Assembly (NCBI GenBank): GCA_964544275.1
Contig: CAZIZX010000002.1
Span: 96,100-160,099 of the forward strand
DNA length: 64,000 nt
Direction: 5' to 3'
DNA from: an uncultured Gammaproteobacteria bacterium
GTDB taxonomy: Bacteria > Patescibacteriota > Microgenomatia > UBA12405
How positions within the stretch are numbered: position 1 is the stretch's first letter; each line of letters begins with the position of its first letter. Shown here one piece after another: positions 26,138-60,744 of this stretch. Below the pieces are notes generated by a model that worked only from the letters and a program-made list of their open reading frames with translations, searched no databases and was not told the DNA's origin. The position numbers and the translations under genes were made by a program.

Positions 26138-26386
26138 ATGTTTGATAAAGCAAAAATGTTGGCCCAGGCTTTGAAGCTGAAAAAAGCTGTTGAAGCGGAA
26201 ACCGTTGAGGTGGAAGAGGGTGGAGTTAGAGTGGTGGCCAGTGGAGATCAGAGAGTGAAACATTTATCGGTCAACGGGGTGGAAAATAAACTTTTAGTTG
26301 ATACGGTTAACAAAGCTTTGAAAAAATCACAGGAAGCCGCCGCTAAAAAAATGAAAGACATGGGTGGAATAGAGGGTTTATTTTAA
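26138..26386 (+). CDS. ybaB: nucleoid-associated protein YbaB/EbfC
   Basis: 82 aa. Conserved dnaX-ybaB-recR synteny. YbaB-like segment VVASGDQRVKHLSVNG. Confidence 0.7.
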   Translation: MFDKAKMLAQALKLKKAVEAETVEVEEGGVRVVASGDQRVKHLSVNGVENKLLVDTVNKALKKSQEAAAKKMKDMGGIEGLF

Positions 26387-26395
26387 AAAATATAT

Positions 26396-27019: not shown

Positions 27020-27032
27020 TATAGTTTAATAA

Positions 27033-27539
27033 ATGAAAAAGATAATCAGTGATACGGCCAGGGCTTTGGGTGAGTTAACGGTGGAGACGGGAAAAGAGGC
27101 GGTTAAACAGGCTGGGGAAATGGGCCGTACAGTAGCGACAACGATTACCGGAAGTGATCTTTTGGGAGATATGGTAAAAATGAGTGATGGGGAGATGAGT
27201 CAAAAGAAAGAACAGGATGAGGCAGTTAAAAATGAGGAGATGGAAAGATTGAGGCGGCAGATGCAAACAGGCCGAAACGTGGAAAGAGAGCTGGAAGAAT
27301 TGAGACAGGAAAGGGAGATTGAGGAAAAGAAGAAGGAAGAGGTGTTTTTGGAGAATATTAGAGTACAGCGAGAGGAAGAGGAGGAAGAGAGACAGCGGAT
27401 GTTGGCACAACAGGAAAGTTCCAATCCTTCAAAAAGGAAAAAGAAAAGAGGAAGTGCTTTTGCTAGGGGTAAGCAGGGCCAGGCATCATTGTCGGAGATG
27501 TCGGCAACGAGTGAGTTTCCAAAAAAGTCAGATCAATAG
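27033..27539 (+). CDS. hypothetical Glu/Arg/Lys-rich coiled-coil protein
   Basis: Highly charged low-complexity ORF with no catalytic motifs. Confidence 0.35.
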   Translation: MKKIISDTARALGELTVETGKEAVKQAGEMGRTVATTITGSDLLGDMVKMSDGEMSQKKEQDEAVKNEEMERLRRQMQTGRNVERELEELRQEREIEEKKKEEVFLENIRVQREEEEEERQRMLAQQESSNPSKRKKKRGSAFARGKQGQASLSEMSATSEFPKKSDQ

Positions 27540-27553
27540 GGTATAATCAGGAA

Positions 27554-28939
27554 ATGAGTAAAAAAATTTATCTTTATAATACTGCTAGTAGACAGAAGGA
27601 AGAGCTGAGGCCGATAAGTGAAAACAAGATTGGAATCTATTCATGCGGACCGACCATCTATTGGAATCAACATATTGGCAATATGTATGCTTATGTTGTT
27701 TGGGATGCGTTGGTCAGGTTTTTGCGGTATGATGGTTTTGAAGTGAAGTGGGTGATGAATATGACCGATGTGGGCCATATGACTTCGGATGAAGATAGCG
27801 GTGAAGATAAAATGGAAAAAGGAGCCAGAAGAGAAGGTTTGACGCCTTTGGAGTTGGCTAAGAAGTATGAAGCTCAATTTTTAAAGAGTCTGGAATTGTT
27901 AAATATTGACAGACCTGATCATTTACCTCGGGCAACGGAACATATTGAGGAGCAAATTAAATTGGCTAAGAAGATGGAAGATCGGGGTTTTACCTATAAA
28001 ACCAAGACGGGGTTGGTATTTGATACCAGTAAATTTCCGGAATATGGCCGTTTGGCTAATTTAAAATTGGACAAAATGGAGGCGGGAGCGAGGGTGGAAG
28101 TTGATCCGGACAAAAGACGGCCGTGGGATTTTTTGTTGTGGGTAACTAATCAACCAAATCATATAATGAAATGGGATTCACCTTGGGGAGAGGGATTTCC
28201 CGGTTGGCACTTGGAGTGCACGGCCATGTCGACTAAGTATCTGGGTGAGAGATTTGATATCCACACGGGAGGAATTGAGCATATCGGAGTGCATCATACT
28301 AATGAAGTGGCTCAGGCTTATGGTGCCTTTGGGGATAAGACAGCCAATATGTGGCTACATAATGCCTGGTTGACTTTGAAAGATGCCAAGATGAGTAAAT
28401 CTGAAGGGAGGGTATACACAATAGAGCAGTTGGGGGAAATGGGATACAATCCGTTGGCTTTCCGGTATTTGGTTTTGACATCTCATTACAGAAAAGGGTT
28501 GGTGTTTTCTTTTGAGTCATTGGAGGCTGCTGGCAAAGCTTTAGATCGGTTGAGGAACTTTGTGGTTGAGTGGAGCGGAGGGGAGACGGGTAAAATTAGT
28601 TTGAAGTACAAAAACCAGTTTAAAGAGGCGGTGGCCGACGACTTAGCTCTGCCGGAAGGGATGGCTGTTTTGTGGAAAATGGTAAAAGATACTGGTTTGA
28701 GTAGTGGAGATAAACTGGCAACGTTACTTGATTTTGATCGGGTGTTAGGGTTAAATTTGAATAGGCCCGTAGATAAATTATTGGTTCCCAAGGAGGTTGC
28801 GGCATTAGTTTCCGAGAGGAATAAAGCTAGAGAGAGTAAAGATTGGCGTCGAGCAGATGAGTTAAGAAAAAAAATTACTGAGTCAGGATATGTAGTGGAA
28901 GATGTGGAAGGTGAGAGTGTGATTAGGAAAATAAAATAA
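27554..28939 (+). CDS. cysS: cysteine--tRNA ligase
   Basis: Class I HIGH region ([13 protein letters not shown]), KMSKSEG, and the C-terminal anticodon-binding DALR-like domain. Confidence 0.9.
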
Positions 28940-28977
28940 TTGTAATTATAAGTATAATGTGTTAATCTAGAGCGTTT

Positions 28978-29268
28978 ATGAATGACAACAAAGATCGATA
29001 TCAGATAGTTTCAGTTTTGAACCCGAAAACTGAGGAGAAAGAAACTGTGCTAAAAAAAATATCTTCTTGGATTGAAGAGCAGGGCGCGGCGGTAACTAAC
29101 TCGATTAATTGGGGAAATAAGGAATTGGCCTATGATATTCAGAAGCTGAATAAGGGGGATTTTTGGATCATGGAGGTGGAGAGCGAAAAGCCTTTGAATG
29201 TGCGGAATTTTAATGTATTTTTAAATAGAGAACCTAGTGTTATTCGTTATATCATTTTGAAAAAGTAA
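28978..29268 (+). CDS. rpsF: 30S ribosomal protein S6
   Basis: S6-like sequence. Conserved rpsF-ssb-rpsR operon. Confidence 0.8.
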   Translation: MNDNKDRYQIVSVLNPKTEEKETVLKKISSWIEEQGAAVTNSINWGNKELAYDIQKLNKGDFWIMEVESEKPLNVRNFNVFLNREPSVIRYIILKK

Positions 29269-29277
29269 GGAGACAAC

Positions 29278-29829
29278 ATGCCTAGTCGATGTTTGAACCG
29301 TGTGATGTTAATTGGTAATTTAACCCGTGATCCGGAATTGAGGTACACCCCTGGAGGAATGGCGGTGACTTCTTTTGGGATGGCGACAAATCGGGTATGG
29401 GTGACTAAGCAGGGTGAAAGAAAGGAAGACGCTCAGTTTCACCGAATTGTAGCTTGGAATAAGTTAGCCGAGCTTTGCTCGCAATTATTAAGCAAGGGAC
29501 GAAGAGTGTTTGTGGAAGGCAGAATCCAATATCGGGAAATTACAGACCAGCAGGGTGTTAGAAAACAGGTATCAGAAATCGTGATTGATGATATGGTTAT
29601 TTTGGATAATAAAGGGGTTCAGTCGAATGAAATGAGAGATAGTGCTGACATGGATAGAGGAATGGAAGAATCCGGCGCTCCGGTGGATGACGATGGAAAG
29701 ATTGAAGATATTGTGATTCCAGATGAAATTATGGATGAGGCGGAGCCTGAAGTTAAAAAAGAGGACCAAGAGGTGACTACTGAACCAGCTGATGCGGACA
29801 AGCCAGCTGAAGAGGAGATGCCCTTTTAA
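29278..29829 (+). CDS. ssb: single-stranded DNA-binding protein
   Basis: OB-fold segment (LNRVMLIGNLTRDPELRYTPGG), an acidic C-terminal tail ending in EEEMPF. Confidence 0.85.
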   Translation: MPSRCLNRVMLIGNLTRDPELRYTPGGMAVTSFGMATNRVWVTKQGERKEDAQFHRIVAWNKLAELCSQLLSKGRRVFVEGRIQYREITDQQGVRKQVSEIVIDDMVILDNKGVQSNEMRDSADMDRGMEESGAPVDDDGKIEDIVIPDEIMDEAEPEVKKEDQEVTTEPADADKPAEEEMPF

Positions 29830-37562: not shown

Positions 37563-38873
37563 ATGAGTGATGTAATGAGATTGCCGCCAAGTTCAGAAGA
37601 AGCAGAACTGTCTGTTTTGGGGTCAATACTGATCGATAATGATGCGATTTTGAATGTGTCTGAATTTTTGAGGCCGGAAAATTTCTATAATTTCAATAAC
37701 GGATCGATTTTTGAGGCGATGATGAAATTGTACGAGGAGAGATCGCCGATTGATATTGTGACAGTGTCGGAAAAGCTGAAGGAACTAAAGCAATTAAAAA
37801 GGATTGGTGGCAAAGCATTTTTGACAAAGTTGGCCAATGAGGTACCAACGGCAGCGAATGTGGAAAGTTACGGGCAAATTATAAAATCATTATCGGCCAA
37901 AAGAGAGTTAATAACGGCAGCGGGGAAAATAGGGGAAATGGCTTTCGATGATGGTATGGGTTCGAATGAGTTATTGGACGCGGCGGAGCAAGCAATCTTT
38001 TCATTGTCACAAAAACACTTAAAGTCAGTGCCAATATCGATAAAAGAAGTATTGACTGCAAGTTTTGACCGGTTGGATGAGCTGCAAAAAATGGGAAATG
38101 GGTTGCGGGGGGTGCCGTGCGGGTTTAAGGCATTAGATACTTTGTTAGCAGGAATGCAAAACAGTAATTTGATTATTTTGGCGGCTAGACCGGGCGTAGG
38201 GAAGACAGCTTTTGGGTTGAATATTGCTAGGCATGTGGCGGTGGAAGAAAAATTGCCGACATGTGTGTTTTCGTTGGAAATGAGCAAGGAGGAGCTGGTG
38301 GACAGGTTGTTGGTGAGGCAGGGTTTGATTGATGCTTGGAAGTTAAAAACCGGTCAATTGTCGGAGCATGATTTTGGTTCATTATCGGAAGCTATGGGAA
38401 TATTAGCTGAAGCACCGTTGTATATCGATGACACCCCAGGGTTGACGGTAACGGAATTAAGAACGAAGGCGCGCAGGTTGCAGGTGGACAAGGGAATCAA
38501 GTTTATTATTGTTGATTATTTGCAGTTGATGCATGGATTGACCCGAGATAATCGGGTCCAGGAAGTTTCGGAAATATCTCAGGGCTTGAAGAATCTAGCT
38601 AGAGAATTGGGAGTTCCGGTGCTGGCGGCGGCCCAGTTATCAAGGGCAATGGAGACGCGGGGAGGCAAGCCGAGATTGTCTGACCTGAGGGAATCGGGGA
38701 GCATAGAACAGGATGCCGATGTGGTGATGTTTCTGCATCGGGAAAATGAGGAAGTTCGGGAGATGGTGACGTGCAGTATTGAAAAACATAGAAATGGCCC
38801 TACTGGCCAATTTAATTTATTTTTCAATGGTAAACAGGTAAGTTTTTTTGATGTGGAGCAAAAGCCGGAATAA
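37563..38873 (+). CDS. dnaB: replicative DNA helicase DnaB
   Basis: N-terminal DnaB domain and RecA-like core with Walker A ARPGVGKTAF, plus the SLEMS and HRN motifs. Confidence 0.9.
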   Translation: MSDVMRLPPSSEEAELSVLGSILIDNDAILNVSEFLRPENFYNFNNGSIFEAMMKLYEERSPIDIVTVSEKLKELKQLKRIGGKAFLTKLANEVPTAANVESYGQIIKSLSAKRELITAAGKIGEMAFDDGMGSNELLDAAEQAIFSLSQKHLKSVPISIKEVLTASFDRLDELQKMGNGLRGVPCGFKALDTLLAGMQNSNLIILAARPGVGKTAFGLNIARHVAVEEKLPTCVFSLEMSKEELVDRLLVRQGLIDAWKLKTGQLSEHDFGSLSEAMGILAEAPLYIDDTPGLTVTELRTKARRLQVDKGIKFIIVDYLQLMHGLTRDNRVQEVSEISQGLKNLARELGVPVLAAAQLSRAMETRGGKPRLSDLRESGSIEQDADVVMFLHRENEEVREMVTCSIEKHRNGPTGQFNLFFNGKQVSFFDVEQKPE

Positions 38874-42642: not shown

Positions 42643-43411
42643 GTATTTATTGTCGTCATTATTGTCGGCTTTTGGGTTTTTCCTTTTGATAACTTTACCG
42701 TATGAATCCCATTATTATGGTCTGTTTGCGGGAATTGTTTTGATTTCGGTGTGTTTCTGGTTTGGTTTGGGGATAATTTTTGAAAAGGATTGGTTTAACA
42801 AGATGATGTCGACAATTTTGCCAGTATGTTTTTTTGTTGGTTCCGGGTTGTTTGTGGCGTTATTACCGTTAAATATGGTGGGATCTTTATTTTTGAGTGT
42901 GTTGTTCGGGGTGGTTTGTTACGTCATATTTTTGGTGGAAAATGTATTTTTGGTGGCAATTGGATATAAAACGGTGCCTTTGTATCGGGCGGCTTACACG
43001 GTGAGCTTGATAATACTTTTGCTGTGTTCATTTTTGCTGTTTAACAGCGTTTTTTCTTTCAGGTTTAACTATGGAATAAATATGCTTTTAGTGTTTTTGG
43101 TGTCGATATTGGTGTATTTGTACCAGTTTTGGGCAATAGCTATTGAACTGCCCGATGATGGTAGAGGGAAGAATATAATTGTCTACGTTTTGGTACCGGC
43201 ATTGCTGATGGCTGAGTTATCTTTGGTCTTTTCTTTTTGGCCCGTAGGTATTTTTAAGGGCTCAATCTATCTGGTGTCAGCGATTTATGTCTTGAGCGGA
43301 CTTTTGCAGGCTGATATTAGAGATCGGTTGTTTAAGAGGACCTGGCTATCGAATATTTGGATTGGGGTGGCTATACTTCTGGGCGTAGTGATAATGACCA
43401 GGTGGAAATAA
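42605..43411 (+). CDS. hypothetical polytopic membrane protein
   Basis: About 8 predicted TM helices. No motif recognised. Confidence 0.35.
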   Translation: MFLPVLIMNKRIKYLLSSLLSAFGFFLLITLPYESHYYGLFAGIVLISVCFWFGLGIIFEKDWFNKMMSTILPVCFFVGSGLFVALLPLNMVGSLFLSVLFGVVCYVIFLVENVFLVAIGYKTVPLYRAAYTVSLIILLLCSFLLFNSVFSFRFNYGINMLLVFLVSILVYLYQFWAIAIELPDDGRGKNIIVYVLVPALLMAELSLVFSFWPVGIFKGSIYLVSAIYVLSGLLQADIRDRLFKRTWLSNIWIGVAILLGVVIMTRWK

Positions 43412-43614
43412 ATATAAATTATACCTAAAGATAGGTTAAAACTTAATATTTGTGATTTAGAAAGGGGATTGTAGGTGAGTTGAAGCAGCTTTAGGGTTTG
43501 GTTTAGATGAAAGTTCGTGAGTGAGGTTTTGCGGTTAGTTGTGGCAATGATTTAGCGGGATTTGGGATAAAAACTGGGAAAAATATTTTGACAAGGGTGG
43601 GAGAGTAGGGAAGT

Positions 43615-43650
43615 GTCCTATAATATTTATATCCTATAATAATATTATTT
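43615..43650. repeat. bipartite CCTATAATA...CCTATAATAATATTATT motif with a palindromic AATAATATTATT core, upstream of the recombinase gene
   Basis: Seen in sequence. Related copies occur at 45382-45404 and 45478-45519. Confidence 0.45.
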
Positions 43651-44271
43651 TCACGGTATTGGTAATAATTTTCACATAATTATATGATATACAATGATAT
43701 AGTCTGTGTGGAAAAGTTAGAGGATGATGAATGTATCAGGAGAAGTGCTTGTTTGTAGTGAGAGTAGAGGGGGTAAGCAGTCAAATAACAAGCAAGCGAA
43801 GAAAATTAAAAAAGTAATAAAGTGGATGTGTTGGTAAGTGATAATATATACCTTCCCTAAGCAGGAGGAGGGTATCTTTGCTATGTCGCACAATGTATCT
43901 TTTACGACTAGGAAGCTGGAAAAAGGGAGGGGAGGTAGCGTGGATTTATTTTCTAAATTATTTAAAAATAGTTCCTGGTATTTTGGTAATTAAAGTTTTG
44001 GGGATTTTAAAAATGGCATTATTTGTCCTCTGGCGACTTTGGATCCATCTCAAATTGTCAGGCATAAATTTGATTTTTGACTCCCCTGAAGAGAAAATCC
44101 GGGGATATAGATAAAAATAACGAAAAGATAGGTAAAAAATGATATGACTTCACCAGAGGCTCTGTAATTAAAGATTTGAACAAAATGATATTCAGTATCC
44201 TTGGTTTTGGTAAATTTGAGCTAAGTTCGACAAAAATTGTGACAAACAAATAAAACTGTTAAGATGAAGTT

Positions 44272-45207
44272 ATGGAAAATGATTTAAGAGTTCTTGTTAG
44301 AAGATTTTTGGAATATCTGGAAGTGGAAAGAAACTGCTCGAAATTAACAATCAGGAATTATGAGCACTATCTTGATGTATTACTAAATTATTTGTCAGAG
44401 GGAAAAGAAGAAAAGGTTTTGACGATTTTTGATGTGAACGTTGAGAGTGTGAGGAAGTTTCGATTATATTTGAGCCGGCAGAAAGGAGTCAAGGGAGAAA
44501 TGAAACCGGTAACTCAGGGGTATTATATTATTGCTCTAAGGTCGTTGCTGAAGTGGTTGGTGAAGAATGATTATGTGGTTTTGCAGCCGGAAAAGTTGGA
44601 AGTACCAAAGAGTAAAGATCATTCATTAAAGTTTTTGGACGATAGTCAGATGGACAGGCTTTTGGGACAGCCGTTGTCGTCAACGATTAATGGCCTGCGG
44701 GATAAGGTGATATTGGAATTATTGTTTTCTACGGGCTTGAGGGTGTCGGAGTTGGTGTCCTTGGATCGGGATCAGGTAGATTTAGCGACGCGTGAGTTTG
44801 GGGTTGTGGGCAAGGGTGGTAGGTCGCGAGTGGTATTTATTTCGAAAAGAGCAGCTGATTACATGGATAAATACTTAAAAAACCGAAGGGATCACTTCAG
44901 ACCGCTGTTTATTCGGTATTCGGGTAAAAGAGATGTGGTCGTCAGTGACCAAGGTATGAGGTTGACAGTAAGATCGGTGCAGAGATTGGTCAAAAAATAT
45001 GTTAGGCAGGCTCGCCTACCGGTTGAGGCCACACCCCATACTTTGAGGCATTCGATGGCGACTGATTTGTTGAGGGCCGGAGCCGATTTGAGATCGGTGC
45101 AGGAAATATTGGGACACAAAAATATTGCCACCACTCAAATTTATACCCACGTGACAGATGCCCGGCTGAGGGAAATTCATGAAAAATTTCATAAAGGTAA
45201 TAAATAA
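44272..45207 (+). CDS. XerC/XerD-like tyrosine site-specific recombinase
   Basis: Catalytic residues in context: R (GLRVSEL), HxxR (HTLRHS) and Y (TTQIYTHV). N-terminal SAM-like core-binding domain. Confidence 0.8.
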   Translation: MENDLRVLVRRFLEYLEVERNCSKLTIRNYEHYLDVLLNYLSEGKEEKVLTIFDVNVESVRKFRLYLSRQKGVKGEMKPVTQGYYIIALRSLLKWLVKNDYVVLQPEKLEVPKSKDHSLKFLDDSQMDRLLGQPLSSTINGLRDKVILELLFSTGLRVSELVSLDRDQVDLATREFGVVGKGGRSRVVFISKRAADYMDKYLKNRRDHFRPLFIRYSGKRDVVVSDQGMRLTVRSVQRLVKKYVRQARLPVEATPHTLRHSMATDLLRAGADLRSVQEILGHKNIATTQIYTHVTDARLREIHEKFHKGNK

Positions 45208-45381
45208 AAGGTGGTGCCGGGCAGTATCCTTATAGTAGTGGTTTAGCAGGAGATGTCAGTGTACGAATGCAATTGTGATGTGTACTAGTTACTTATGGTT
45301 TAATTTATCCGTATCTTAGGTTAATATATAAATTGTGTGCCTGATTAGCAGTAGTGGTTGGTAACTGCTAATATCCCCCAC

Positions 45382-45519
45382 CCTATAGTTAATGACCTAT
45401 AATTTTGATACGACTCCCCTACCCTACCGATTTATTAAATAAAAAATTTAGCCAAAAGTGTGAACAATATTATTAATTGTCCTATAGTAATTGGTGCATT
45501 AATCCTATAATATTATTAG
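45382..45519. repeat. two further bipartite CCTATAGT..CCTATAAT motif pairs plus CCCCTACCCTA-type C-rich repeats between the recombinase and the gyrA 3' end
   Basis: CCCTATAGTTAATGACCTATAAT at 45382-45404. TGTCCTATAGTAATTGGTGCATTAATCCTATAATATTATTAG at 45478-45519, which contains the palindrome ATAATATTAT. Confidence 0.45.
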
Positions 45520-45561
45520 TCCCCTACTCTGATTACTAAGATGGTGACAGTCTAAGGAAGT

Positions 45562-48186
45562 TTACTGAGCTTCTTCTGTTTCAGGTTTTTGGAGTACGGT
45601 CAGAGTGCTAACTTTGTCATCTTCGGCCTTTATTCTCATCAGGATTACTCCTTGGGTGTTTCGGCTGAGAATGGGAATATTTTTTAGGGGTAGCTTGATA
45701 GTAATGGCTTTTTTGGAGACGAGAATCACCTGTTCGTCATTTTCGGTGACTACTTGAGCAACTGCTACTTTGCCGGTCTTGGAGGTTAAACTGGAGACCT
45801 TGACACCAACGCCGCCCCGTTTTTGGAGAGGATATTGGTAGATGTCGGTACGTTTACCGATACCTTTTTCGGTGCAGACTAAAAGATGTCGGAAACTTTT
45901 GTCCTTTTTGCCTTTTTCTTTGGGAATAGAAGGTGGAACTACCCCAACACTGACAAGGTAATCGTTCTCTTTGAGAAAAATACCCCGAATACCCCGGGTG
46001 TGGCGACCCATGGGCCGGGCGTCTTTTTCATCAAAACGGATACACTTGCCTTCGTGGGTAATCATAAAAATGTGGCAGTTGCCGTCAGTACTTTTGGCCC
46101 AGACAAGCTGGTCGTTAGGATCAAGCTTGATAGCAGTCAGGCCGTTTTGGCGAATATTGTTGAATTTCTCGACGGCAGTTTTCTTAATGACACCTTTTTT
46201 GGTAGCTAGGAGAATATATTTGATGGGATCTTCTTTTCTAATTGAAAGTACGGCTTGAACTGTTTCTCCCTGGGAGATGTTGATGAGGTTAATGATAGCC
46301 TGTCCTTTGGACTGGCGGTTGGCTTCATTTAGATCCCAGACTTTGGTTTTGAAAACCCGACCTTTGTTGGTAAAGAAAAGGAGGTCGTCGTGAGTGGTGA
46401 CGTTGAGCATGTTTTCGATTTCGTCTTCCTCCTTGGTAGTCATGCCTAAGACTCCGATGCCACCGCGTTTCTGGGTGCGATAAGTGTCCTTGGAAACTCT
46501 TTTTATGTAGCCGGTTTTGGTGATGGTAACAAAGGTTGATTCTTTGGAGATCAGGTCTTCTTCGGAAAAGTCTTCCAGTCCCCGAGAATAAATTTTGGTA
46601 CGACGAGTATCACTGTATTTTTCGAGTATATCTTTGTTGTCGGATTTGATAACGCCAATCATGCGGTCTTCCCGGGTGATGATGGCGGTTAAGTCGTCGA
46701 TTACCGCTTTGATGGCGTTATATTCTTCTTCGATCTTTTGACGTTCGAGAGCAGCCAGACGTCGGAGCTGCATTTCCAGAATGGCATTGGCCTGAACGTC
46801 GGTAAAGTTGAATTTAGCCATTAAATTATTTCGAGCGTCTTCGGTGCTTTGTGAGGCGCGGATAGTTTTGATAACTTCGTCGATATTGTCCAGAGCAATT
46901 TTGAGACCTTCTAGAATGTGAGCCCGCATCAGCGCACCCTTGAGATCAAAAAGGGTGGCCCGACGGATGATATTTTCTCGATGACGAAGAAAGAGGAGCA
47001 GCATCTGACGGAGGTTTAGAGTTTGAGGAATACCGTTGACCAAAGCCAATATATTGGCAGAATAGGAGCTTTGGAGGGCGGTAAATTTGTAGAGTTTATT
47101 TAAAATTGTTTTGGGTTTGCCAGTTTTCCTGATTTCTATGACTATCCGGATACCATGGCGGTCAGATTCGTCGCGAAGATCGGAGATACCAATTATTTTT
47201 TTGTCGCGAACCAGATCGGCGATTTTTTTGATGAGTTCAGACTTATTAACCTGATAGGGCAACTCGGTGACGATAATTCTGATTTTGCCTGATTTGGTTT
47301 CTTCAATAGTGGATTTGCCCCTGATTTTGAATTTGCCTCGGCCAGTATTGTACATTTCAAGGATGCCGCTTTTGCCGTAAATTTCTCCGGCTGTGGGGAA
47401 ATCAGGGCCCTGGACGTATTTGACCAAGTTATCAATGGTGGCATTTGATTCCAGATTAAAACGGAGTTTTTGGAGGTCGTAGAGTGGTTTTAGAATTATG
47501 TCTTCGGTGGTTTGTTTTTTGTTGATCGGTTCAATCTCAATTTCGGGTTCAACTTTTTCCAGATGGGCATGATCGAGCATGTGATCTAGGGCAAGACAGA
47601 GCTCTTTGAGGTTGTGAGGTGGAATTCGGGTGGCCATGCCGACAGCAATACCGTCAGCTCCGTTGAGTAAGAGGTTGGGCACGCGGGCAGGCAGTACGGT
47701 TGGTTCTTTGAGGGTAGCGTCAAAATTTTCACTCATGTCAACAGTTTCTTTGTTGATGTCGGAAATCATTTCATTGGTTAATTTGGCCATTTTGACTTCG
47801 GTATACCTCATGGCCGCTGGAGGATCACCGTCGATAGAACCAAAATTGCCTTGGCCAGTGACTAGCGGATAGCGCATGGAAAATTCCTGGGCCATACGGA
47901 CCATGGCAAAGTAAACCGAAATGTCGCCGTGAGGGTGGTATTTACCCAAAACTTCACCCACAACTTTGGCTGATTTTGAGTTTTTGCCTCCAGGAGTCAA
48001 GCCCATTTGGTTCATGGCATAGATAATGCGGCGGTGGACGGGTTTTAGCCCATCGCGGACATCAGGAAGTGCTCGTTGGACGATGACACTCATGGCATAG
48101 TCCAGATAAGATTTTTCCATTTCCGGGACGATGTCTACCGCAAGTATTTTGCCGATATTGTTTTTTGAGGTGTTTGAATCTGCCAT
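45562..48186 (-). CDS. gyrA: DNA gyrase subunit A
   Basis: N-terminal region [24 protein letters not shown] with the active-site Tyr region, and C-terminal beta-pinwheel repeats. Confidence 0.95.
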
Positions 48187-48192
48187 GATTTA

Positions 48193-50142
48193 TTAAATGT
48201 CTAATGTAGCCAAGTGGGCGTGGGTCTGAATAAATTTTTTTCGAGGCGGAACATCGCTACTCATTAAAACCCTAAAAGTTTCGTCAGTTTTCTGGGCATC
48301 TTCGATAGAAACTTTCTTAAGAAGCCTGGTTTCGGGATTCATGGTGGTATCCCAGAGTTGTTGAGGATTCATTTCTCCCAAACCCTTATAACGCTGGATG
48401 TCGAAGGCTTTGCTGGTATCGATTGATTTGAGGTAAGTTTCTTTTTCTTCTTCGGTATAGACATATTTGACTGTTTTGCCCTGCTGGATTCGATAAAGAG
48501 GCGGCATGGCAATATAGACATAACCGTTTTCGATGGTGTAGGGCATGTGGCGGAAGAGAAAAGTTAGAAGGAGGGTGGAAATATGGGCGCCATCAACGTC
48601 AGCGTCAGCCATGAGGATGATACGGTGATAACGGAGTTTCTCCGGGTTGAGGGTTTCCCCTATTCCCATGCCCAGAGCGATAATCAGGTCTTTCAGCTTA
48701 TCAGAGCCGACAATTTTGTCTAGGCGCATACCTTCGGTGTTGAGGGCTTTGCCCCAAAGTGGCAAAATGGCCTGGAAGCGGCGGTCTCTTCCTTGTTTGG
48801 CGCTACCGCCAGCCGAATCGCCTTCGACGATATATATTTCCGAATCCTGTGGGTTTTTTGATTGACAGTCGGCCAGTTTGCCGGGAAGTCCGAGAGAGTC
48901 GAAAACGCCTTTGCGCATAATTGCCTCCTTGGCGGCTTTGGCAGCTTTGCGGATTTGGATGGCCAATAATGATTTTTGGACGATTGATCGGGCGACATCG
49001 GGATGTTCTTCAAAAAACATATCAAGTTCTTCTTTGACGATTTTGGTGACTATGGGTTGGACTTCGCTGTTGCCAAGTCGACCTTTGGTTTGACCTTCGA
49101 ATTGAAGATCGCGACTAGGCATTTTGACGGAGATAACGGCAGTTAGGCCTTCGCGGGTATCGTCGCCGGTGATATTATCATCTTTGTTTTTGAGTAATTC
49201 TTTTTTGATAGCATAATCTTTGACGGATCGGGTGAGGGCTGTTTTGAAACCGGACAAATGAGTGCCGCCCTCATGAGTGTTGATAATATTGACGTAAGAA
49301 GGGGTATTTTCCTGAAAAGTATCGTTATATTGGATAGCAACTTCCAGATCAACGCCATTAGCCTGATCCTGGCCGTGGATGTAAATTGGTTCGTGGACAG
49401 TAACTTTATTTTTGTTGAGTTCGGTCAGAAGTGATACGATGCCGCCTTCGAAGTAATAGTGGTGTTGGGTATTGTGTCTTTCGTCGAAATAATGAAAGTA
49501 TATTTTGGAGGTCAGGTAAGCTCGATCTTTGAGGGATTTTAAAATGATTTTGGAATCAAACTCGGTGGTTTCTTTGAAAATTACAGGGTCCGGGAGGAAG
49601 GTAACGGTGGTACCGGTGGTACCTTGGGGGATAATTTTACTTAATAGTTTGACGTTGGTTTGAGGTATTTGGGTTAGTTTGGTTTTGACTTTGCCTCGAC
49701 TGAATTCCATGAGATAGATCTTGTCGTCCCGGCGAACTTCGACTCGGTAGGCCTGGGACAAGGCGTTAACGCAGGCGGCACCGACACCGTGCAATCCTCC
49801 AGAAACTTTGTAGGCGGCACCTTCAAATTTGCCGCCAGAGTGGAGGGTGGTCATAATGACTTCCAGGGCTGGCTTATTGTATTTGGGCATGATGTCGATG
49901 GGGATTCCCCTACCGTCGTCGGCAACAGAAATGGAGTTGTCAGGATGAACAACAACCCAAATATTTTTGGCAAAACCGGCCAGGGCTTCATCGATGGAGT
50001 TGTCAACAATTTCGGTTAGACAATGGTGGAGTCCTCGAACATCAGTGGTGCCGATATACATGGCAGGCCGTTTTCTGACCGGCTCAAGACCTTCTAAAAC
50101 TACAATTTGTTGGCTGGTATATTCTTGTTTTGGGGCTGGCAT
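48193..50142 (-). CDS. gyrB: DNA gyrase subunit B
   Basis: GHKL ATPase, transducer and Toprim (EGDSAGGS) domains. Conserved gyrB-gyrA order. Confidence 0.95.
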   Translation of the reverse strand: MPAPKQEYTSQQIVVLEGLEPVRKRPAMYIGTTDVRGLHHCLTEIVDNSIDEALAGFAKNIWVVVHPDNSISVADDGRGIPIDIMPKYNKPALEVIMTTLHSGGKFEGAAYKVSGGLHGVGAACVNALSQAYRVEVRRDDKIYLMEFSRGKVKTKLTQIPQTNVKLLSKIIPQGTTGTTVTFLPDPVIFKETTEFDSKIILKSLKDRAYLTSKIYFHYFDERHNTQHHYYFEGGIVSLLTELNKNKVTVHEPIYIHGQDQANGVDLEVAIQYNDTFQENTPSYVNIINTHEGGTHLSGFKTALTRSVKDYAIKKELLKNKDDNITGDDTREGLTAVISVKMPSRDLQFEGQTKGRLGNSEVQPIVTKIVKEELDMFFEEHPDVARSIVQKSLLAIQIRKAAKAAKEAIMRKGVFDSLGLPGKLADCQSKNPQDSEIYIVEGDSAGGSAKQGRDRRFQAILPLWGKALNTEGMRLDKIVGSDKLKDLIIALGMGIGETLNPEKLRYHRIILMADADVDGAHISTLLLTFLFRHMPYTIENGYVYIAMPPLYRIQQGKTVKYVYTEEEKETYLKSIDTSKAFDIQRYKGLGEMNPQQLWDTTMNPETRLLKKVSIEDAQKTDETFRVLMSSDVPPRKKFIQTHAHLATLDI

Positions 50143-54687: not shown

Positions 54688-54732
54688 TTTAAAATCAGGT
54701 TTAAACTAGCAGTCGTAAGCATAGACTGCTAG
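54688..54732 (-). terminator. putative terminator hairpin (CTAGCAGTC...GACTGCTAG) after the ligA-associated operon
   Basis: Perfect 9-bp stem. Only a modest T-tract follows on the minus strand. Confidence 0.35.
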
Positions 54733-55172: not shown

Positions 55173-57110
55173 TCATGGTTTATTTTGGGAGAGTAAATCA
55201 TTAAACTGTTCTTCGCTGATGATGGGTATGCCCAGCTTGAGGGCGGTTTTGTATTTACTGGAAGCAGAGTTGGTTTGGTTGGTTAAAAGAAAGTTAGTGG
55301 TGACGGAAACAGACGAAGATACTCTGCCGCCCTGGGATTCTATGTCGGCAATGATGTCTTTTCGGGGACGGGAGAGGCTGCCGGTAATGACGAAGGTCTG
55401 ATTGCCTAATTTATTTGGGGTTGATTCTTTTTTGATGTCGATTTGACCAAGAAGGGATAAAATAAAATCCCGGCGGTTTTTTATGCCCTCAACAATTTTT
55501 TGGGCTAGTGTACTTTTGATGCCGGGAAGATTTTCCAGGTCAGTTTGAGTGATATTCAGGATTTTTTGGGGTGTATCGAAGCCCGAGGTAATAAGTTGCT
55601 GGATTCTTTGGGAGCTGAAGTTGGGGATGACTGAGGCGTCGAATAATTGGCGCAGGGTAAGCTGTTTTTTGGTTTGGATTTCTCTGACAATGTTGGTGCC
55701 CGATTTGTCACCCAAGCCCTCCAACTCCTTGAAGTCTTCGATTTTGAGCTGGTAGAAATCACCTGGGAGGCGGACTTTTTCGGCTTCAAAAAGTTTTTTG
55801 ATGGTTTTTTTGGAGATATTTTTGATGTCGAGAGTTTTTATAAAAAGATTGAGACTGCCTAGGATTTGGGCGGGGCAATTGAAAATATTGGGACAGGATA
55901 TGTGTTTTTCGTCAATAATTAGGTTGGTGTTACAAGAGGGACATTTCTTTGGAGGGTAAGCGTGGCTTGGAGTGACTTTACTGGCAACTTTTTCAACATA
56001 AGGGATGACGTCGCCTCGGCGGCTGATTTCGACAATATCGCCGACATTAATATTTTTTTCCCGGATTAAATCATAATTAGCCAGAGAGGCAAAAGTTATG
56101 ACTGCTCCTGAAATTTCCACCGGTTCGACTTGGGCAACCGGAGTGACTGACCCCATAGGTCCGGTTTGCCAGTTGATACCGAGAATACGAGTTTCGTCAG
56201 TGTTGGCCGGGAATTTGTAAGCTACTTGACCTTTGGGGCGGTTGTTGTGGAAGCCCAGGGATTGTTGTAATTCCAAGTCGTTACTTTTTATAACTAAACC
56301 GTCTATCTCAAAGGGATAAGCCAATCTTTTTTGATTTAGAAATTGAGTATAGATTGATTCAACTTGAGAAAGGTTGGCACAATAGTAATTTTCGACAGTG
56401 ACAATGTTCATATTTTGGAGATAATCCATTTTTTCTTTTTCTGATTTGGGATTACTTTCCAAATTGATTAGATCGACGGCCATCAGGGTGCATAGTTGGC
56501 TATATTTACCGTCAAGGCGTTGGGAGATACCGGAAGCTGCGTTTCTGGGGTTACTGTAATTTTCGTCAGACAGGCGGTTTAAGTTGGCAAAATCTTTGTA
56601 GGTTACTAACAGTTCGCATCGGATGGAACCATTAAAGTTTTGATTCAAGTTTGGGCGGAAATTTTTCATTTTGACAACGTTTTGGGTAATGACATCGCCG
56701 ATCAGGCCGTCACCTCGAGTAATGGCATCGACTACCCTACCCTGACGGTATTCAATTTCAAGGGAAATTCCGTCACACTTGGGTTGAACCAGAAAATCGG
56801 TAGAATCGGGAATCTTTTTGAGACGGAAATAATTTTCTAGATCAGAAAAGTTGCTAACCTTGTTTTGAGATCCCATGGGGATAAGGTGTGGCTTTTTTTC
56901 AAAACCGGTATCGAACGAGGGTGTACCAACTTTGGAAAATAAACGGTGATGGGGATTTTTTTGGCGCAGGATTTCTTCGAGAGTATCGTAAGTGTGATCG
57001 TCCATGATGGGTTTGCCGGTGGTGTAATAGGCTTTTTTGGCATTGATCAAAATCTCTCCCAGATCTTGCGGGGAGATATTTTCCAAATCAATATCTTTGA
57101 GAGTAATCAT
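55173..57110 (-). CDS. ligA: NAD-dependent DNA ligase
   Basis: Domain Ia. Adenylation motif KxDG (PKCDGISLE). OB fold, Zn finger (CPSCNTNL..C..C), HhH and C-terminal BRCT. Confidence 0.9.
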   Translation of the reverse strand: MITLKDIDLENISPQDLGEILINAKKAYYTTGKPIMDDHTYDTLEEILRQKNPHHRLFSKVGTPSFDTGFEKKPHLIPMGSQNKVSNFSDLENYFRLKKIPDSTDFLVQPKCDGISLEIEYRQGRVVDAITRGDGLIGDVITQNVVKMKNFRPNLNQNFNGSIRCELLVTYKDFANLNRLSDENYSNPRNAASGISQRLDGKYSQLCTLMAVDLINLESNPKSEKEKMDYLQNMNIVTVENYYCANLSQVESIYTQFLNQKRLAYPFEIDGLVIKSNDLELQQSLGFHNNRPKGQVAYKFPANTDETRILGINWQTGPMGSVTPVAQVEPVEISGAVITFASLANYDLIREKNINVGDIVEISRRGDVIPYVEKVASKVTPSHAYPPKKCPSCNTNLIIDEKHISCPNIFNCPAQILGSLNLFIKTLDIKNISKKTIKKLFEAEKVRLPGDFYQLKIEDFKELEGLGDKSGTNIVREIQTKKQLTLRQLFDASVIPNFSSQRIQQLITSGFDTPQKILNITQTDLENLPGIKSTLAQKIVEGIKNRRDFILSLLGQIDIKKESTPNKLGNQTFVITGSLSRPRKDIIADIESQGGRVSSSVSVTTNFLLTNQTNSASSKYKTALKLGIPIISEEQFNDLLSQNKP

Positions 57111-57122
57111 TGATTTATTTTA

Positions 57123-58256
57123 CTAGACGTTGGAGAGGCAGTAGTAGGCCCCTTTGGTGGAGCCGCGTTTTTCGACAACTTTGTCATCGATGAGTTTCTT
57201 GAGGTCACGCCAAATAGTATCGTCAGAAACCATGGGGAGAAGTTGTTGGGCGTCGGGCATGCGAAGACCGCCAAATTGCTGCATGTATTCGACTAATTTG
57301 ATCTGGCGTTCGGAAAGATGGATTTGTTTACCACCCAGCTTTTGTTTGAATTTAATATCACGGGAAAGACTTTGAACTTTTTCTTTGACCCGAGTCAGTT
57401 CGATGGACAGGGCCTGGGTAAAATATTCAATCCAAGCGGTCATGTCTCTTTTGAAAATATCGGAAGAAGAATTGTGGGTTTGCTGGATGGTGTTGTAATA
57501 GCTTTCAGCATTTCGGTCAAAATATTCTTCGAGGGAGAAAAGACGGCGGATGTCGTAACCTTCGACAAAGAGGGGCAACATGGCAAAAGCCCGGGAACAA
57601 CGGCCATTACCTTCGATAAAAGGATGAATGGCGACCAGGACATATTGAGTGATAGCTGATCGGATAGACGGATGAACATCGCGAGAGGAGGGATGGTTGA
57701 GCCAGTCAAGAAAATCAACTATCAGGTATGGAACTTCGATGGCAGGTGGTGGACGATGGGCGATTTCGCCGGTACGGGTGTTTTTGAGGACCACTTGTTG
57801 ATGACGGTATTTACCAACTTCCGAGTCAGGGATAACTTTGGTGGTGGTCAATTCGTGGATTCTTTTGATAATTATTTGGCTGTAGAAAAATGGTCTTTTT
57901 TCATTTTCGTCATTAGCAGGAACAGTTTTTTCTTCGGGCAGGGGCATGTTGGCATCGTAGAGCGACCAGAGCTCCTCGAGGTAGTTCATAACGTTTCTAT
58001 AGTTAATTACCTCCTGAATATCCCGGTCGGTAGCAGTAATTTTTTGACCCTCAACCACTCGGGCGACTTCCTGAAAAGTGAGATCGTTGCCTTCGATTCG
58101 GGTACCAAAATGAACAGTCCGAACGATAGCTTCCTGCTGAAATTGTTTTTCGTAGGCCGGTATAAGTGGGGCTTCGTCAATGATCGCCTTGGCTCCTTCA
58201 ATGGTGGCTATGTTTTTTAGAATCTGATTATTGATGGTAAACAAAGGCGAAAACAT
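57123..58256 (-). CDS. Fic-family protein (AMPylator-type motif) with C-terminal winged-helix
   Basis: Canonical Fic motif HPFIEGNGRCSRAF. Confidence 0.8.
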   Translation of the reverse strand: MFSPLFTINNQILKNIATIEGAKAIIDEAPLIPAYEKQFQQEAIVRTVHFGTRIEGNDLTFQEVARVVEGQKITATDRDIQEVINYRNVMNYLEELWSLYDANMPLPEEKTVPANDENEKRPFFYSQIIIKRIHELTTTKVIPDSEVGKYRHQQVVLKNTRTGEIAHRPPPAIEVPYLIVDFLDWLNHPSSRDVHPSIRSAITQYVLVAIHPFIEGNGRCSRAFAMLPLFVEGYDIRRLFSLEEYFDRNAESYYNTIQQTHNSSSDIFKRDMTAWIEYFTQALSIELTRVKEKVQSLSRDIKFKQKLGGKQIHLSERQIKLVEYMQQFGGLRMPDAQQLLPMVSDDTIWRDLKKLIDDKVVEKRGSTKGAYYCLSNV

Positions 58257-58325
58257 TTGATTGATTATATCATTTTTATTAACATTTGTGAGGTGAAAAT
58301 GCGGTTATTTGAAAATACAATTTTT

Positions 58326-58973
58326 TCAGGAAAGAAAATAGTAGTCAAGAGCAGATTTGGGGTCAACGTTGTGCTTGATCATGGAGATGGCCTTGATGAT
58401 CTTGTTGATGTGTCCGGCTTTGATAGGTGTGGGGTGGTTTAATAGCTGCTGTTTTTGGAGTAATAGCTGTTCTTCCAGGATTGACAAGATTTGGTTTTTG
58501 TTTTGGGCAATCTTTTCTGAGGAAAGAAGGTTGGTTTGGATGTTGTGGCTGATTGAAAGGAGGTCGGTTTTTGGGACTTGGTTTGAGCTGGCGGCCTTTA
58601 TAATGTGAACCCGGGAAATAATGGTGGGCAGAAGGGCAGATGAGTTGGGAGCGGTCAGGATTAAGTAATTATCTTTACCGGGTTCTTCCAGAGTTTTTAG
58701 TAATGCATTTTGGGATTCTAAATTAAGCTGTTGAGCGTCGGAAATAATTACGATTTTGTTTTGGTGGCAAAACGGCTTTTGGGACAAAAAGTTTTTGATT
58801 TTTCGGATGACATCGATCCCCCAGCCTGAGTTCTGGTCGATATTGAGAATATCAGGGTTGTTGGGTGTGGGCAGGTTTTCTAAGGACAGGCAGATCAGGC
58901 TGATCTGTTTTCGGATAACAGAAAAGTTATTTGAGACGATGAGAGTGCTTTGGAAGTTACCGACTGTTGTCAA
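58326..58973 (-). CDS. holB: DNA polymerase III delta'-like clamp-loader subunit (degenerate N-terminus)
   Basis: AAA+ sensor/SRC region (NALLKTLEEP...LLPTIISRV). No Walker A. The ORF extends to 59138 but would overlap pilB by 134 nt. A TTG start at 58973 is proposed; the true start is uncertain. Confidence 0.5.
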   Translation of the reverse strand: MTTVGNFQSTLIVSNNFSVIRKQISLICLSLENLPTPNNPDILNIDQNSGWGIDVIRKIKNFLSQKPFCHQNKIVIISDAQQLNLESQNALLKTLEEPGKDNYLILTAPNSSALLPTIISRVHIIKAASSNQVPKTDLLSISHNIQTNLLSSEKIAQNKNQILSILEEQLLLQKQQLLNHPTPIKAGHINKIIKAISMIKHNVDPKSALDYYFLS

Positions 58974-58995
58974 GCTTATTAGAAAACTGTAATAT
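58967..58995 (+). promoter_or_regulatory. sigma70-like promoter for pilB (TTGTCA-N17-TAATAT), with the ATG 9 nt downstream (near-leaderless)
   Basis: Both hexamers seen in sequence, with a 17-nt spacer. Confidence 0.45.
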
Positions 58996-59004
58996 GTTGT
59001 TATT

Positions 59005-60744
59005 ATGAATGATACTGCCCAAAAAAGGTACAAGAACTTAACGGAGGTGTTGAAGGGCAAAGGTTTGATAGACGAAGAAAAGGCCAAGGAGATCCATTTA
59101 AGGCAGTTGAAGACGGGTGAAACGGAAGAAGAAATCATTAAGTCTTTGAGAGTAGTTACCGACGGAGAGTTTGTCCAAGCAAAGGCAGATTTACTGCGGA
59201 TCCCTTATGTTGATCTGGAGGCAATCGGGTTCTCGCCTGAAGCTTTGGCACTGGTTCCGGAAGGTGTAGCCACAAAATACAAGGTTTTTCCTTATAAACT
59301 GGATGCAAAGACGAAGACTATTTATGTGGCTATGGCTAATCCGTTGGATTTGGAGACGGTAGAATTTATCGAGAAAAAAACCAGTCTTAAGGTAGCGACC
59401 GCGATTTCGACAGAAAAACAGATAATGTCGTTTATTCGGGAGAAATATGAAAGAGAAAAAGGAATAACTTCTGAGGTGACCAAGGCTTTGGACGAGCAAA
59501 AGAAAGAAGAAAAGATAATCAAGGAAACTCAAAGAAAAGTTTCTTCAGAGGCACCAGTGGCCAAAATTGTAGAAACGATATTGGAATACGCAGTCAAATC
59601 CAGAGCTTCCGATGTCCATATCGAGCCGCAGGAGGACAATGTCCGGGTAAGGTACCGGATTGACGGAATATTGCAGGAAAAATATTTATTACCTCGTAAT
59701 GTCCAAGAGGCGGTGGTGTCGAGAATCAAGATTTTGGCCGATTTGAAAATTGATGAAAAAAGAGTACCTCAGGATGGCAGGTTTTTCTTCTCATCAGACG
59801 GCAACGATGTTGATTTGCGTATTTCTACTTTGCCGGCAACTTATGGTGAAAAGGTGGTAATGCGGTTGCTGAAGAAGTCACAGAAGGTACCAACCTTACC
59901 GGAGTTGGGATTGAGAGGTCTGGCTTTGAAAAATTTATCAAATAGTATTTTGAGGCCGCATGGAATTATTATTGTCTGCGGGCCGACCGGTTCAGGTAAG
60001 ACGACTACTTTATATTCGATATTGGACATCGTATCGACAACCAAGGTGAACGTGGTGACGATTGAGGATCCGGTAGAGTACCAAATGAAAGGGGTAAACC
60101 AGGTCCAGGTCAATGTCCAGGCCGGTTTAAGTTTCGCTTCGGCTTTGAGGTCTTTTTTGAGGCAGGATCCGGATGTTATTATGGTGGGCGAGGTTCGGGA
60201 TGCGGAGACAGCCGAGTTAGCAGTAAATGCCGCCTTGACCGGCCACTTAGTTTTCTCTACCTTGCACACGAACGATGCTGCCGGTGTGCCACCGAGACTG
60301 TTGGATATGGGGGTGGAGCCTTTTTTGCTGGTTTCCTCGTTAAACTGCGTGGTGGGACAGAGGGTATTGCGTCGGGTATGTCCCAATTGTGTTTCTCAGG
60401 AGGAAGCGTCGGCCGATGTTGAGGCAGAGATGAAGGTAACTTTGGGCCCGATTTACGACATGATTGAAGACAAATGGAAAAAGGAGGGCAAAAAAATCTT
60501 GTTGCCCAAGGTTGTGGGTTGTGAAAAGTGTAATAACTCAGGTTATTTTGGCAGGATTGCTATTTACGAAGTTATGCCGGTGACGGAAAAAATTAGTAAA
60601 CTGATAATTGAGAAAGCAGCAGCATCAGCGGTACAGAGGTTGGCTATGGAGGAAGGGATGCTGACAATGAAACAAGACGGATACGTTAAAGTATTAGAGG
60701 GGGTGACGACGATGGAGGAAGTCGTTCGGGTAGCCCAATATTAA
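59005..60744 (+). CDS. pilB: type IV pilus assembly ATPase PilB (GspE family)
   Basis: N-terminal GSPII_N domain, Walker A GPTGSGKTTT, Asp and His boxes, and a tetracysteine motif (CPNC...C..C). Confidence 0.9.
   Translation: MNDTAQKRYKNLTEVLKGKGLIDEEKAKEIHLRQLKTGETEEEIIKSLRVVTDGEFVQAKADLLRIPYVDLEAIGFSPEALALVPEGVATKYKVFPYKLDAKTKTIYVAMANPLDLETVEFIEKKTSLKVATAISTEKQIMSFIREKYEREKGITSEVTKALDEQKKEEKIIKETQRKVSSEAPVAKIVETILEYAVKSRASDVHIEPQEDNVRVRYRIDGILQEKYLLPRNVQEAVVSRIKILADLKIDEKRVPQDGRFFFSSDGNDVDLRISTLPATYGEKVVMRLLKKSQKVPTLPELGLRGLALKNLSNSILRPHGIIIVCGPTGSGKTTTLYSILDIVSTTKVNVVTIEDPVEYQMKGVNQVQVNVQAGLSFASALRSFLRQDPDVIMVGEVRDAETAELAVNAALTGHLVFSTLHTNDAAGVPPRLLDMGVEPFLLVSSLNCVVGQRVLRRVCPNCVSQEEASADVEAEMKVTLGPIYDMIEDKWKKEGKKILLPKVVGCEKCNNSGYFGRIAIYEVMPVTEKISKLIIEKAAASAVQRLAMEEGMLTMKQDGYVKVLEGVTTMEEVVRVAQY

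Follow-up and report, generated by a model that had tools for sequence, protein, structure and literature searches.

A single Xer recombinase gene and a candidate dif-type site in a Shapirobacteria-like bacterium of the Patescibacteria

We consider here a 64-kb stretch of contig CAZIZX010000002.1 (the window) and, within it, a gene-poor interval holding a lone gene for a tyrosine recombinase of the Xer type (here called xer) together with a 28-bp quasi-palindrome, the core, that lies 361 bp upstream of the gene. In our assessment this interval is probably the chromosome-dimer-resolution locus of a Shapirobacteria-like bacterium of the Microgenomates/Patescibacteria, made up of one housekeeping Xer gene and one dif-type core. 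Two parts of this proposal can be seen directly in the window: the enzyme is complete, with all of its catalytic residues, and the core, in which two 11-bp inverted arms surround a 6-bp centre, occurs there only once. The remaining steps would follow the general logic of Xer recombination, in that one recombinase species would bind both near-identical arms, two sites on a dimeric chromosome would synapse in a tetramer, and strand exchange across the 6-bp centre would turn dimers into monomers. A fixed array of further motifs (CCTATART, TTTTCAC, TGATATAGT, a DnaA-box-like 9-mer, and G-rich and C-rich motifs) flanks both the core and xer.

Pfam annotation of the 311-residue protein gives an N-terminal SAM-like domain and a C-terminal catalytic tyrosine-recombinase domain, the catalytic set (R157, K181, H256, R259, H282, and Y291) is complete, and the closest relative of solved structure is XerD (1a0p), all of which confirms the XerC/D-like call made in an earlier annotation from the letters alone (the sequence-only reading). 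Among the NCBIfam models for Xer proteins, only the cutoff for XerA (NF040815) is reached, and that marginally (221.5 versus 220, or 1.5 bits), with XerC (254 versus 335), XerD (240 versus 330), and XerS (126.6 versus 267) all below theirs. The integron integrase model TIGR02249 scores 104 versus a cutoff of 265, over a match limited to residues 233–298; with gyrA as the downstream neighbour and no cassettes present, an integron was rejected. There is no second Xer paralog in the 64-kb window.

The recombinase gene indeed stands alone between a + strand and a - strand gene block, as first described: annotation of open reading frames (ORFs) and domains places the end of the + block, formed by YebC and then a DUF5656 membrane protein, at 43411 and the start of gyrA and gyrB on the - strand at 45562, and neither of the xer flanks (860 nt on the left, 354 nt on the right) contains a convincing ORF. 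The gene order YebC–DUF5656–(gap)–xer–gyrA–gyrB–SpoU is kept in every context that we fetched, with a non-coding gap of 0.85–2.1 kb between DUF5656 and xer, a gap of 0.3–0.4 kb between xer and gyrA, and gyrA, gyrB, and SpoU on the opposite strand. Homologs of the protein number in the hundreds at 72–85% identity, and those with a name belong to Candidatus Shapirobacteria or Patescibacteria; more than 40 Shapirobacteria-like genomes (Microgenomates, in the candidate phyla radiation, CPR) have orthologous xer loci with the same arrangement of CCTATART copies, and two Logan contigs that encode an identical Xer protein are 100% identical to the window. Because this level of identity and the strict synteny extend across dozens of species, we take the recombinase to be a conserved housekeeping Xer, single within the 64-kb window.

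The core is the best-conserved non-coding element of the locus. It occurs once in each locus fetched. In approximately 60 loci it shares its strand with xer and precedes the gene by 300–550 nt in Shapirobacteria, 1.1–1.25 kb in more distant lineages, and approximately 200 nt in two others. The arms are kept throughout, and the centre depends on the lineage (TGTATC, TATAAC, TAATAC, TGTTAC, or TGTAAC), as expected for a recombinase site; the predicted architecture equals the published definition of dif. Compared with the E. coli dif sequence, 15 of the 28 positions are identical in register. The two arms of the family consensus, ATGTCGCACAA and ATGTCGCAAAA, agree with each other at 10 of 11 positions, such that one recombinase species would bind both, which fits the single xer gene. 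A 78-residue ORF running over the core (43878–44114) has no Pfam match and was not treated as a gene, since the conservation of the core is at the DNA level, with no third-position variation, and does not extend to its flanks.

We regard 43883–43910, present once in the window, as the candidate dif-type site of this Xer. The sequence-only reading had anticipated a dif-like or att-like site in this interval; such a site exists, in the form of a 28-bp 11-6-11 quasi-palindrome, but it is not the CCTATART motif to which that role had been given. The alternative that the reading itself had named, of a single chromosomal Xer with its dif away from those motifs, is essentially what the evidence shows. 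Our literature searches found no description of a dif site from the Patescibacteria/CPR, for which the core offers a concrete candidate.

The core on contigs without xer

We searched for the 24-nt core pattern GTCGCACAA-N6-TTTTRCGAC in a viral collection (loci L089–L208) and a metagenome collection (loci L209–L328), obtaining at least 120 matches in each, and looked for relatives of xer on these partial loci by tblastn with this Xer as the sole query. Among the matches listed, the core is present without xer on at least 120 viral contigs and on approximately 100 other metagenome contigs, and xer/DUF5656/YebC synteny is seen at approximately 16 metagenome loci. This query found no close Xer relative in the listed viral loci (at least 120). 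The contigs concerned are varied: the core is present in an inovirus-like family (a 4.7-kb contig with a Zot-type ATPase and no integrase), on another viral contig that carries a terminase, beside TrwB-type coupling proteins of type IV secretion systems (T4SS) on some metagenome contigs, and, away from xer, beside gltX on a Parcubacteria-type chromosomal contig (L270). On one metagenome contig (L244), the core occurs at 772–795, 3170–3193, and 5568–5591, exactly 2398 bp apart and each time beside the same 169-residue ORF resembling helix-turn-helix/excisionase proteins, a pattern suggestive of a circular element of 2.4 kb that the assembly shows as three tandem units. A convergent switch of gene orientation at the core was seen at 7 of 15 further site-bearing metagenome loci.

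The xer-less, core-bearing contigs suggest that mobile elements borrow the host Xer, presumably for integration or multimer resolution, and the overall distribution would be as expected for a phylum-wide dif type that mobile elements exploit, comparable to cer and to the integrative mobile elements exploiting Xer (IMEX). A profile of the mobile-element module aligned with the window over the 28-bp core only. On mobile elements, CCTATART shows no enrichment around the core (6 of 204), and the core would therefore work without it. The sequence TTWTCCACA lies 136–360 nt from the core in 37 of approximately 200 non-syntenic contigs, often followed by a C-rich motif similar to CCCCTACCCT. If mobile elements do share the core with their hosts, it offers a way to recognise the mobile elements of uncultured CPR bacteria and to link them to those hosts.

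On many viral contigs, for example L118, L165, L206, L091, and L182, the core is flanked by repeats of ACCCCTGTTA or of its complement TAACAGGGGT, which may be iterons or accessory sites. In the window itself, a 758-residue TrwB/HerA-like coupling ATPase is encoded at 11154–13430 on the - strand, and is of the same protein type as that found beside the core on L216 and L314.

Conserved elements around the core and xer

The sequence-only reading had singled out a reiterated CCTATART motif (M1) around the recombinase and the presence of C-rich repeats. The clustering of the former (P ~1e-9) and the reality of the latter bear this observation out. Seven CCTATART copies occur in the 64-kb window, compared with 2.95 expected, and six of these (at 43617, 43633, 45382, 45396, 45481, and 45504, all on the + strand) form three pairs, spaced by 16, 14, and 23 nt, within a 2.15-kb interval for which approximately 0.1 copies are expected (P(>=6) ~1.2e-9, Poisson); the C-rich repeats are located at 45374–45384, 45413–45425, and 45518–45530. 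At approximately 60-fold above background in the interval, the motifs are not simply sigma70 -10-like elements recurring at background frequency, a possibility that had been raised along with the observation. The positions of these and the other conserved elements are collected in Table 1.

Table 1. Features of the candidate dimer-resolution locus and replication and repair genes of the window
Feature	Position	Strand	Remarks
G-rich element AGGGTGGGAGAGTAGGGAAGT	43594-43614	+	C-rich motif type in reverse complement; kept in relatives immediately left of the M1 copies
Upstream M1 pair of CCTATAAT	43617-43640	+	resembles promoter -10 boxes
Two ATTTTCAC(G/A) elements	43647-43676	+	21 bp apart
TGATATAcaaTGATATAGT direct repeat, then TGTGGAAAA	43685-43715	+	repeat is extended -10-like
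DnaA-box-like TTTTCCACA	43707-43715	-	TGTGGAAAA read on the - strand
Candidate dif-type core ATGTCGCACAA-TGTATC-TTTTACGACTA	43883-43910	+	11-bp inverted arms, 6-bp centre
G-rich block AAGGGAGGGGAGG	43923-43935	+	fixed distance right of core
AT-rich tract	43936-44076		GC minimum of the locus
C-rich motif (M2 type) TTGACTCCCCT	44077-44087	+	conserved ~200 nt right of core
Conserved block ATAGGTAAAAAATGATATGACTTCACCAGAGGC	44126-44165	+	from conservation profile
xer	44272-45207	+	311 aa; XerA/XerCD-type tyrosine recombinase; PF02899 + PF00589
Degenerate M1 copy CCTTATAGT	45228-45236	+	just 3' of the xer stop; conserved as GTGTCCTATAGT in relatives
Small palindrome/hairpin CCGTATCTTAGG	45309-45320	+	consensus CCCTAwTTTAGGG
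Inverted repeat ATTAGCAG-N13-CTGCTAAT	45345-45372	+	
Second M1 pair CCTATAGT, CCTATAAT, then ACTCCCCTACCCT	45381-45425	+	
Third M1 pair, then AGTCCCCTACTCT	45481-45530	+	
Replication/repair genes	7815-8531, 8830-10824, 24551-29829, 37563-38873, 45562-50142, 55173-59138		

Comparison with the orthologous regions shows that the M1 motifs are conserved around xer in three places: left of the core, where relatives have one to four copies of CCTATAAT at 210–290 nt (some species with inverted copies as well), directly after the xer stop, and shortly before the gyrA stop codon. Ahead of the gyrA stop codon the order of M1 and then a C-rich motif is conserved; at the position of the window's third pair, most relatives have one M1-plus-C-rich unit, and some an additional copy. 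Across 44 species, the typical upstream array begins with the G-rich element, runs through one to four copies of CCTATAAT, ATTTTCACG, approximately 7 nt, and a CCTATAAT fused to TTTCAC, and continues, sometimes by way of inverted ATTATAGG copies, to TGATATAnnnTGATATAGT and TGTGGAWAA. Pairs of ATTTTCACG that occur at 1767–1787 lie inside the fmt coding sequence and were taken as chance. We note in passing that several assemblies (L003/L010, L007, L016, and L039; also L005, L006, and L008) end 80–200 nt upstream of the CCTATAAT cluster and that the spacer from DUF5656 to this cluster ranges from 0.2 to 1.3 kb among loci; the DNA left of the cluster may be strain-variable or difficult to assemble.

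The remaining elements keep similarly regular positions. The ATTTTCAC elements are approximately 90–100% conserved across the 44 species, with CCTATAAT between them in most relatives. Left of the core, TGTGGAWAA is found at 155–290 nt in approximately 53 of 61 loci, distant lineages such as Chisholmbacteria-like ones among them, and in 19 loci it is the perfect consensus TGTGGATAA; besides this single conserved box, the loci examined contain no DnaA-box cluster, and inspection by eye found no DnaA-trio periodicity beside it. To the right, GGGGA follows the first base of the GTCGCACAA arm core (43885 in the window) by 44–45 nt in nearly all species, and the AT-rich tract is bracketed by the G-rich block and the complementary TTGACTCCCCT; mean GC content from +50 to +150 relative to the core is 17.5–22% across the 44 species, compared with a background of approximately 35%. 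The ATAGGTAAAAAATGATATGACTTCACCAGAGGC block is probably a proximal promoter or leader element of xer. Downstream of the gene, the first and the second of the CCTATART copies there enclose two palindromes (CCCTAwTTTAGGG and TTAGCA-N15-TGCTAA). A few variants of the CCGTATCTTAGG hairpin are compensated (CGTA...TACG). The half-sites and spacing of the ATTAGCAG-N13-CTGCTAAT repeat, to which the second consensus belongs, are conserved in 43 species with only two compensatory cases, and this repeat is probably a terminator or operator of xer.

A second copy of TAGCAG-N13-CTGCTA is present at 54707–54731, between two - strand genes (2 found versus 0.13 expected), and a nearby GATATATTTTGATATATAAATATCCCCTGAGC resembles motifs downstream of xer in relatives. 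The loci of more distant lineages (L052, L053, L057–L063, and L083) have a different short motif, AAAACCCGAA, repeated to the left and right of the core, and their core and xer are separated by an extra ORF.

Judged by their positions, the CCTATART motifs most likely act in transcription or in the binding of accessory factors, and would thereby control xer expression or the direction of recombination. As a less likely alternative, they may be promoters, and the conserved blocks may be parts of small non-coding RNAs or of a long structured xer leader. Their TATAAT and TATAGT hexamers fit the -10 consensus and TGATATAGT is compatible with an extended -10 box, but a consistent -35 box at 16–18 nt was not found, the downstream copies are directed towards the end of gyrA (its 3' side), and the motif is missing from the ordinary promoters of the window, which have no CC prefix. 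For an RNA one may cite the variable spacers between conserved blocks, the few compensated changes in small hairpins downstream of xer, and the G-rich block, which is complementary to TTGACTCCCCT and paired with it by RNAalifold. Yet for the 44-species upstream alignment RNAalifold gave weak structure with an unfavourable covariation term, so that we keep the idea of a non-coding RNA as a rival only; Rfam yielded no family even at E<=10, its only matches being three tRNAs and two at chance level (whole window at gathering thresholds; 43300–45700 at E<=10), and ARAGORN found no tmRNA.

A somewhat more doubtful proposal is that the conserved 250–300 bp beside the core are accessory sequences akin to those of the plasmid sites cer and psi, at which bound proteins would impose selectivity on recombination without FtsK or a terminus position. 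The chromosomal motifs do stand at fixed distances from the core, which itself lies away from any skew inversion (see below), and some of the mobile elements have TTWTCCACA and CCCCTACCCT-like motifs near the core; on most mobile copies, however, the motifs are missing, the box of the mobile elements is on the other side of the core, and chromosomal and mobile copies cannot be aligned beyond the 28 bp. Further support comes from the archaeal side, given that this Xer just passes the XerA model, that in vitro archaeal XerA needs no partner proteins to recombine dif, and that flanking inverted repeats have been reported at archaeal dif (PMC2958812). The flanking elements fit both such accessory sequences and an adjacent origin and terminus, considered next, and cannot separate the two.

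Replication context and less probable readings

As a check on whether the locus is a replication terminus, GC skew was uninformative: the + strand is G-rich over the whole 64-kb window, and the skew at third codon positions (GC3 skew) has the same sign left of the core (+0.55 for + genes and +0.62 for - genes) and right of it (+0.47 and +0.52, respectively). At 20 loci (7 of them from the 44-species Shapirobacteria-like set), GC3 skew likewise keeps one sign in nearly all genes to either side of the core; in the other site-bearing contigs, GC and GC3 skew gave no clear picture at the core. In closed Microgenomates genomes, Kadnikov et al. 2020 described a near-linear cumulative skew over the whole chromosome, for which they proposed either unidirectional theta replication or an origin placed next to the terminus (PMC7143001). 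Since the skew is thus one-signed chromosome-wide in this clade, the test has no power to place the terminus; the core meanwhile provides a fixed landmark in a clade with such skew. Gene orientation does converge at the locus, with 77% of coding bases on the + strand left of the core and 69% on the - strand right of it, and this is the look of an ordinary terminus. In a polarity test modelled on the FtsK orienting polar sequences (KOPS), counts of GGGNAGGG, AGGGGA, and GGGGA fall or reverse right of the core; across the 44 species, this reversal is limited to the approximately 2.4 kb of conserved motifs and does not extend into gyrA, and we therefore make no genome-scale claim about KOPS.

Several observations weigh against a dimer-resolution locus and should be set beside the evidence for it. 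The core does not lie at a GC-skew inversion, which in a typical bacterium would argue against a terminus. The two arms of the window's own copy agree at only 7 of 11 positions. On the mobile contigs, divergent integrases may have escaped the tblastn search, in which this Xer was the sole query and the loci were partial. Finally, the roles of CCTATART, TTTTCAC, and the G-rich and C-rich motifs are ones that we infer from position and resemblance only.

An unlikely idea is that the locus combines terminus and origin, with replication starting in the AT-rich tract by the core, running one way, and ending at dif. Its parts would be the DnaA-box-like 9-mer, iteron-like CCTATAAT/TTTTCAC units with a period of 21–23 bp, and the AT-rich tract. 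The one-signed GC3 skew of approximately +0.5 on both sides and in both gene orientations, in the window and at the 20 loci, is what this idea would explain, as is the skew reported from related Microgenomates (PMC7143001), and it can also draw on TGTGGAWAA beside the core even in distant lineages, on the GC minimum at +50 to +150, and on the TTWTCCACA copies near the core in non-syntenic contigs. Of the features of an oriC, one conserved DnaA box and an AT-rich tract are present, with no box cluster, no dnaA in the window, and neither dnaA nor dnaN up to 44 kb to the left or 20 kb to the right. The box may serve only in the regulation of a promoter, gene orientation converges as it does at an ordinary terminus, and a rightward fork would meet 13 kb of essential genes head-on. 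Should the chromosome of Shapirobacteria and related Microgenomates nonetheless be replicated one way, with origin and terminus coinciding here and a single fork ending at dif/xer (which we likewise think unlikely), the chromosome-wide one-signed skew would be explained, and the locus would supply the first concrete coordinates for an adjacent origin and terminus.

It is improbable that the 28-bp palindrome is instead a hairpin origin or nick site of HUH rolling-circle replication, or an operator, that lies beside xer by coincidence. Nick sites would be expected on small circular, inovirus-like, and conjugative-type contigs, and the core is indeed frequent there, but its linkage to xer is tight and ancient across Microgenomates, its 11-6-11 geometry is exact and resembles bacterial dif, its constant arms and varying centre suit a recombinase site, and there are chromosomal contexts with no HUH gene nearby.

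Very improbable is the original suggestion that the bipartite CCTATARTAAT motifs, through their AT palindromes, are themselves the recombinase core (dif or att) sites bracketing the gene. The motifs cluster strongly around xer, are conserved in orthologous loci, and in some species have inverted copies (e.g., CCTATAATATTATAGG in L026). They are, however, mostly same-strand direct repeats, variable in number (one to four copies upstream, at least two downstream) and in spacing (14–39 nt), and therefore lack the geometry of a core site, with no 11-6-11 arrangement; a far better core candidate lies 240 nt away, and it is not accompanied by CCTATART on mobile elements. Every motif copy had been said to contain a perfect AT palindrome, which holds for two of the three pairs (AATAATATTATT and ATAATATTAT) and fails for the third, and in orthologous loci these palindromes are not conserved, the motif usually being followed by TTTCACG. 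Because of this lack of conservation as well, we do not consider the CCTATART motifs to be crossover sites.

Least probable of all is that an integrated mobile element with decayed cargo, such as a phage or an ICE, left xer and its flanks behind, as had in part also been suggested: the gene is isolated in AT-rich, ORF-poor DNA and the G-rich left element and C-rich right elements stand in inverted relation, but the 72–85% identity and the fixed position between DUF5656 and gyrA in more than 40 species, a protein that scores as XerC/XerD/XerA and not as a phage integrase, flanking non-coding blocks that are conserved themselves, and a GC3 skew of xer equal to that of its neighbours all contradict it, and we reject this reading.

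Genes for replication and repair are densely packed in the wider neighbourhood of the locus (topA, dprA, dnaX, recR, ssb, dnaB, gyrA, gyrB, ligA, and a holB-like gene); among the window ORFs scanned, dnaA, dnaN, and ftsK were not found. Elsewhere in the window, the region 13431–15166 contains two long gaps with a repeated stretch, GCACTTTGACAACCCG, at approximately 13732 and 14304, each repeat being followed by a small arginine- and proline-rich ORF, which may represent a duplicated small gene plus its promoter.

Comparison with known Xer and related systems

Reading the interval as a dimer-resolution locus invites comparison with the established Xer systems. It shares with XerCD/dif of E. coli and Bacillus the 11-6-11 architecture, and XerD is the best solved relative of the enzyme; those systems, however, have two paralogs, asymmetric arms, xer genes unlinked to dif, and a dif located at the skew inversion and controlled by FtsK/KOPS, whereas at this locus a single recombinase gene is linked to a site with near-symmetric arms and the skew does not invert.

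Among the mobile relatives of such systems, the plasmid sites cer and psi and IMEX such as CTXphi, VGJphi, and the gonococcal genetic island (GGI) are replicons without a recombinase of their own that carry a dif-like core and use the host Xer (PMC5357621). Their counterparts here would be the inovirus-like, phage-like, T4SS-element, and 2.4-kb contigs, with the differences that the hosts would be Patescibacteria and that no integration junctions were observed. With iteron- and DnaA-dependent origins the locus has in common a DnaA-box-like 9-mer, direct repeats with a periodicity of 21–23 bp, and an adjacent AT-rich tract; it differs in having no initiator gene or dnaA nearby, only 2–4 repeat units, and gene orientation that converges instead of diverging.

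The closest parallels are with the single-recombinase systems. As in XerS/difSL of streptococci and lactococci (PMC5357621), one recombinase gene lies directly beside its site to form one module; the locus nevertheless falls outside this family, as difSL has 31 bp with an 11-bp centre and XerS has 356 residues, in contrast to the 28-bp site and 6-bp centre found here and an XerS score far below the cutoff. Archaeal XerA/dif likewise combines a single recombinase with a 28-bp site of near-perfect 11-bp arms, a 6-bp spacer, and flanking repeats (PMC2958812), and the XerA model is the one Xer cutoff that this protein reaches, although by 1.5 bits; here, however, the host is bacterial, the arm sequences differ, and the gene adjoins its site, whereas xerA of the Thermococcales is not next to dif. 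The locus would represent a bacterial Xer module in which the gene of a single recombinase is linked to a canonical 28-bp site, placed between the XerS and the archaeal XerA arrangements.

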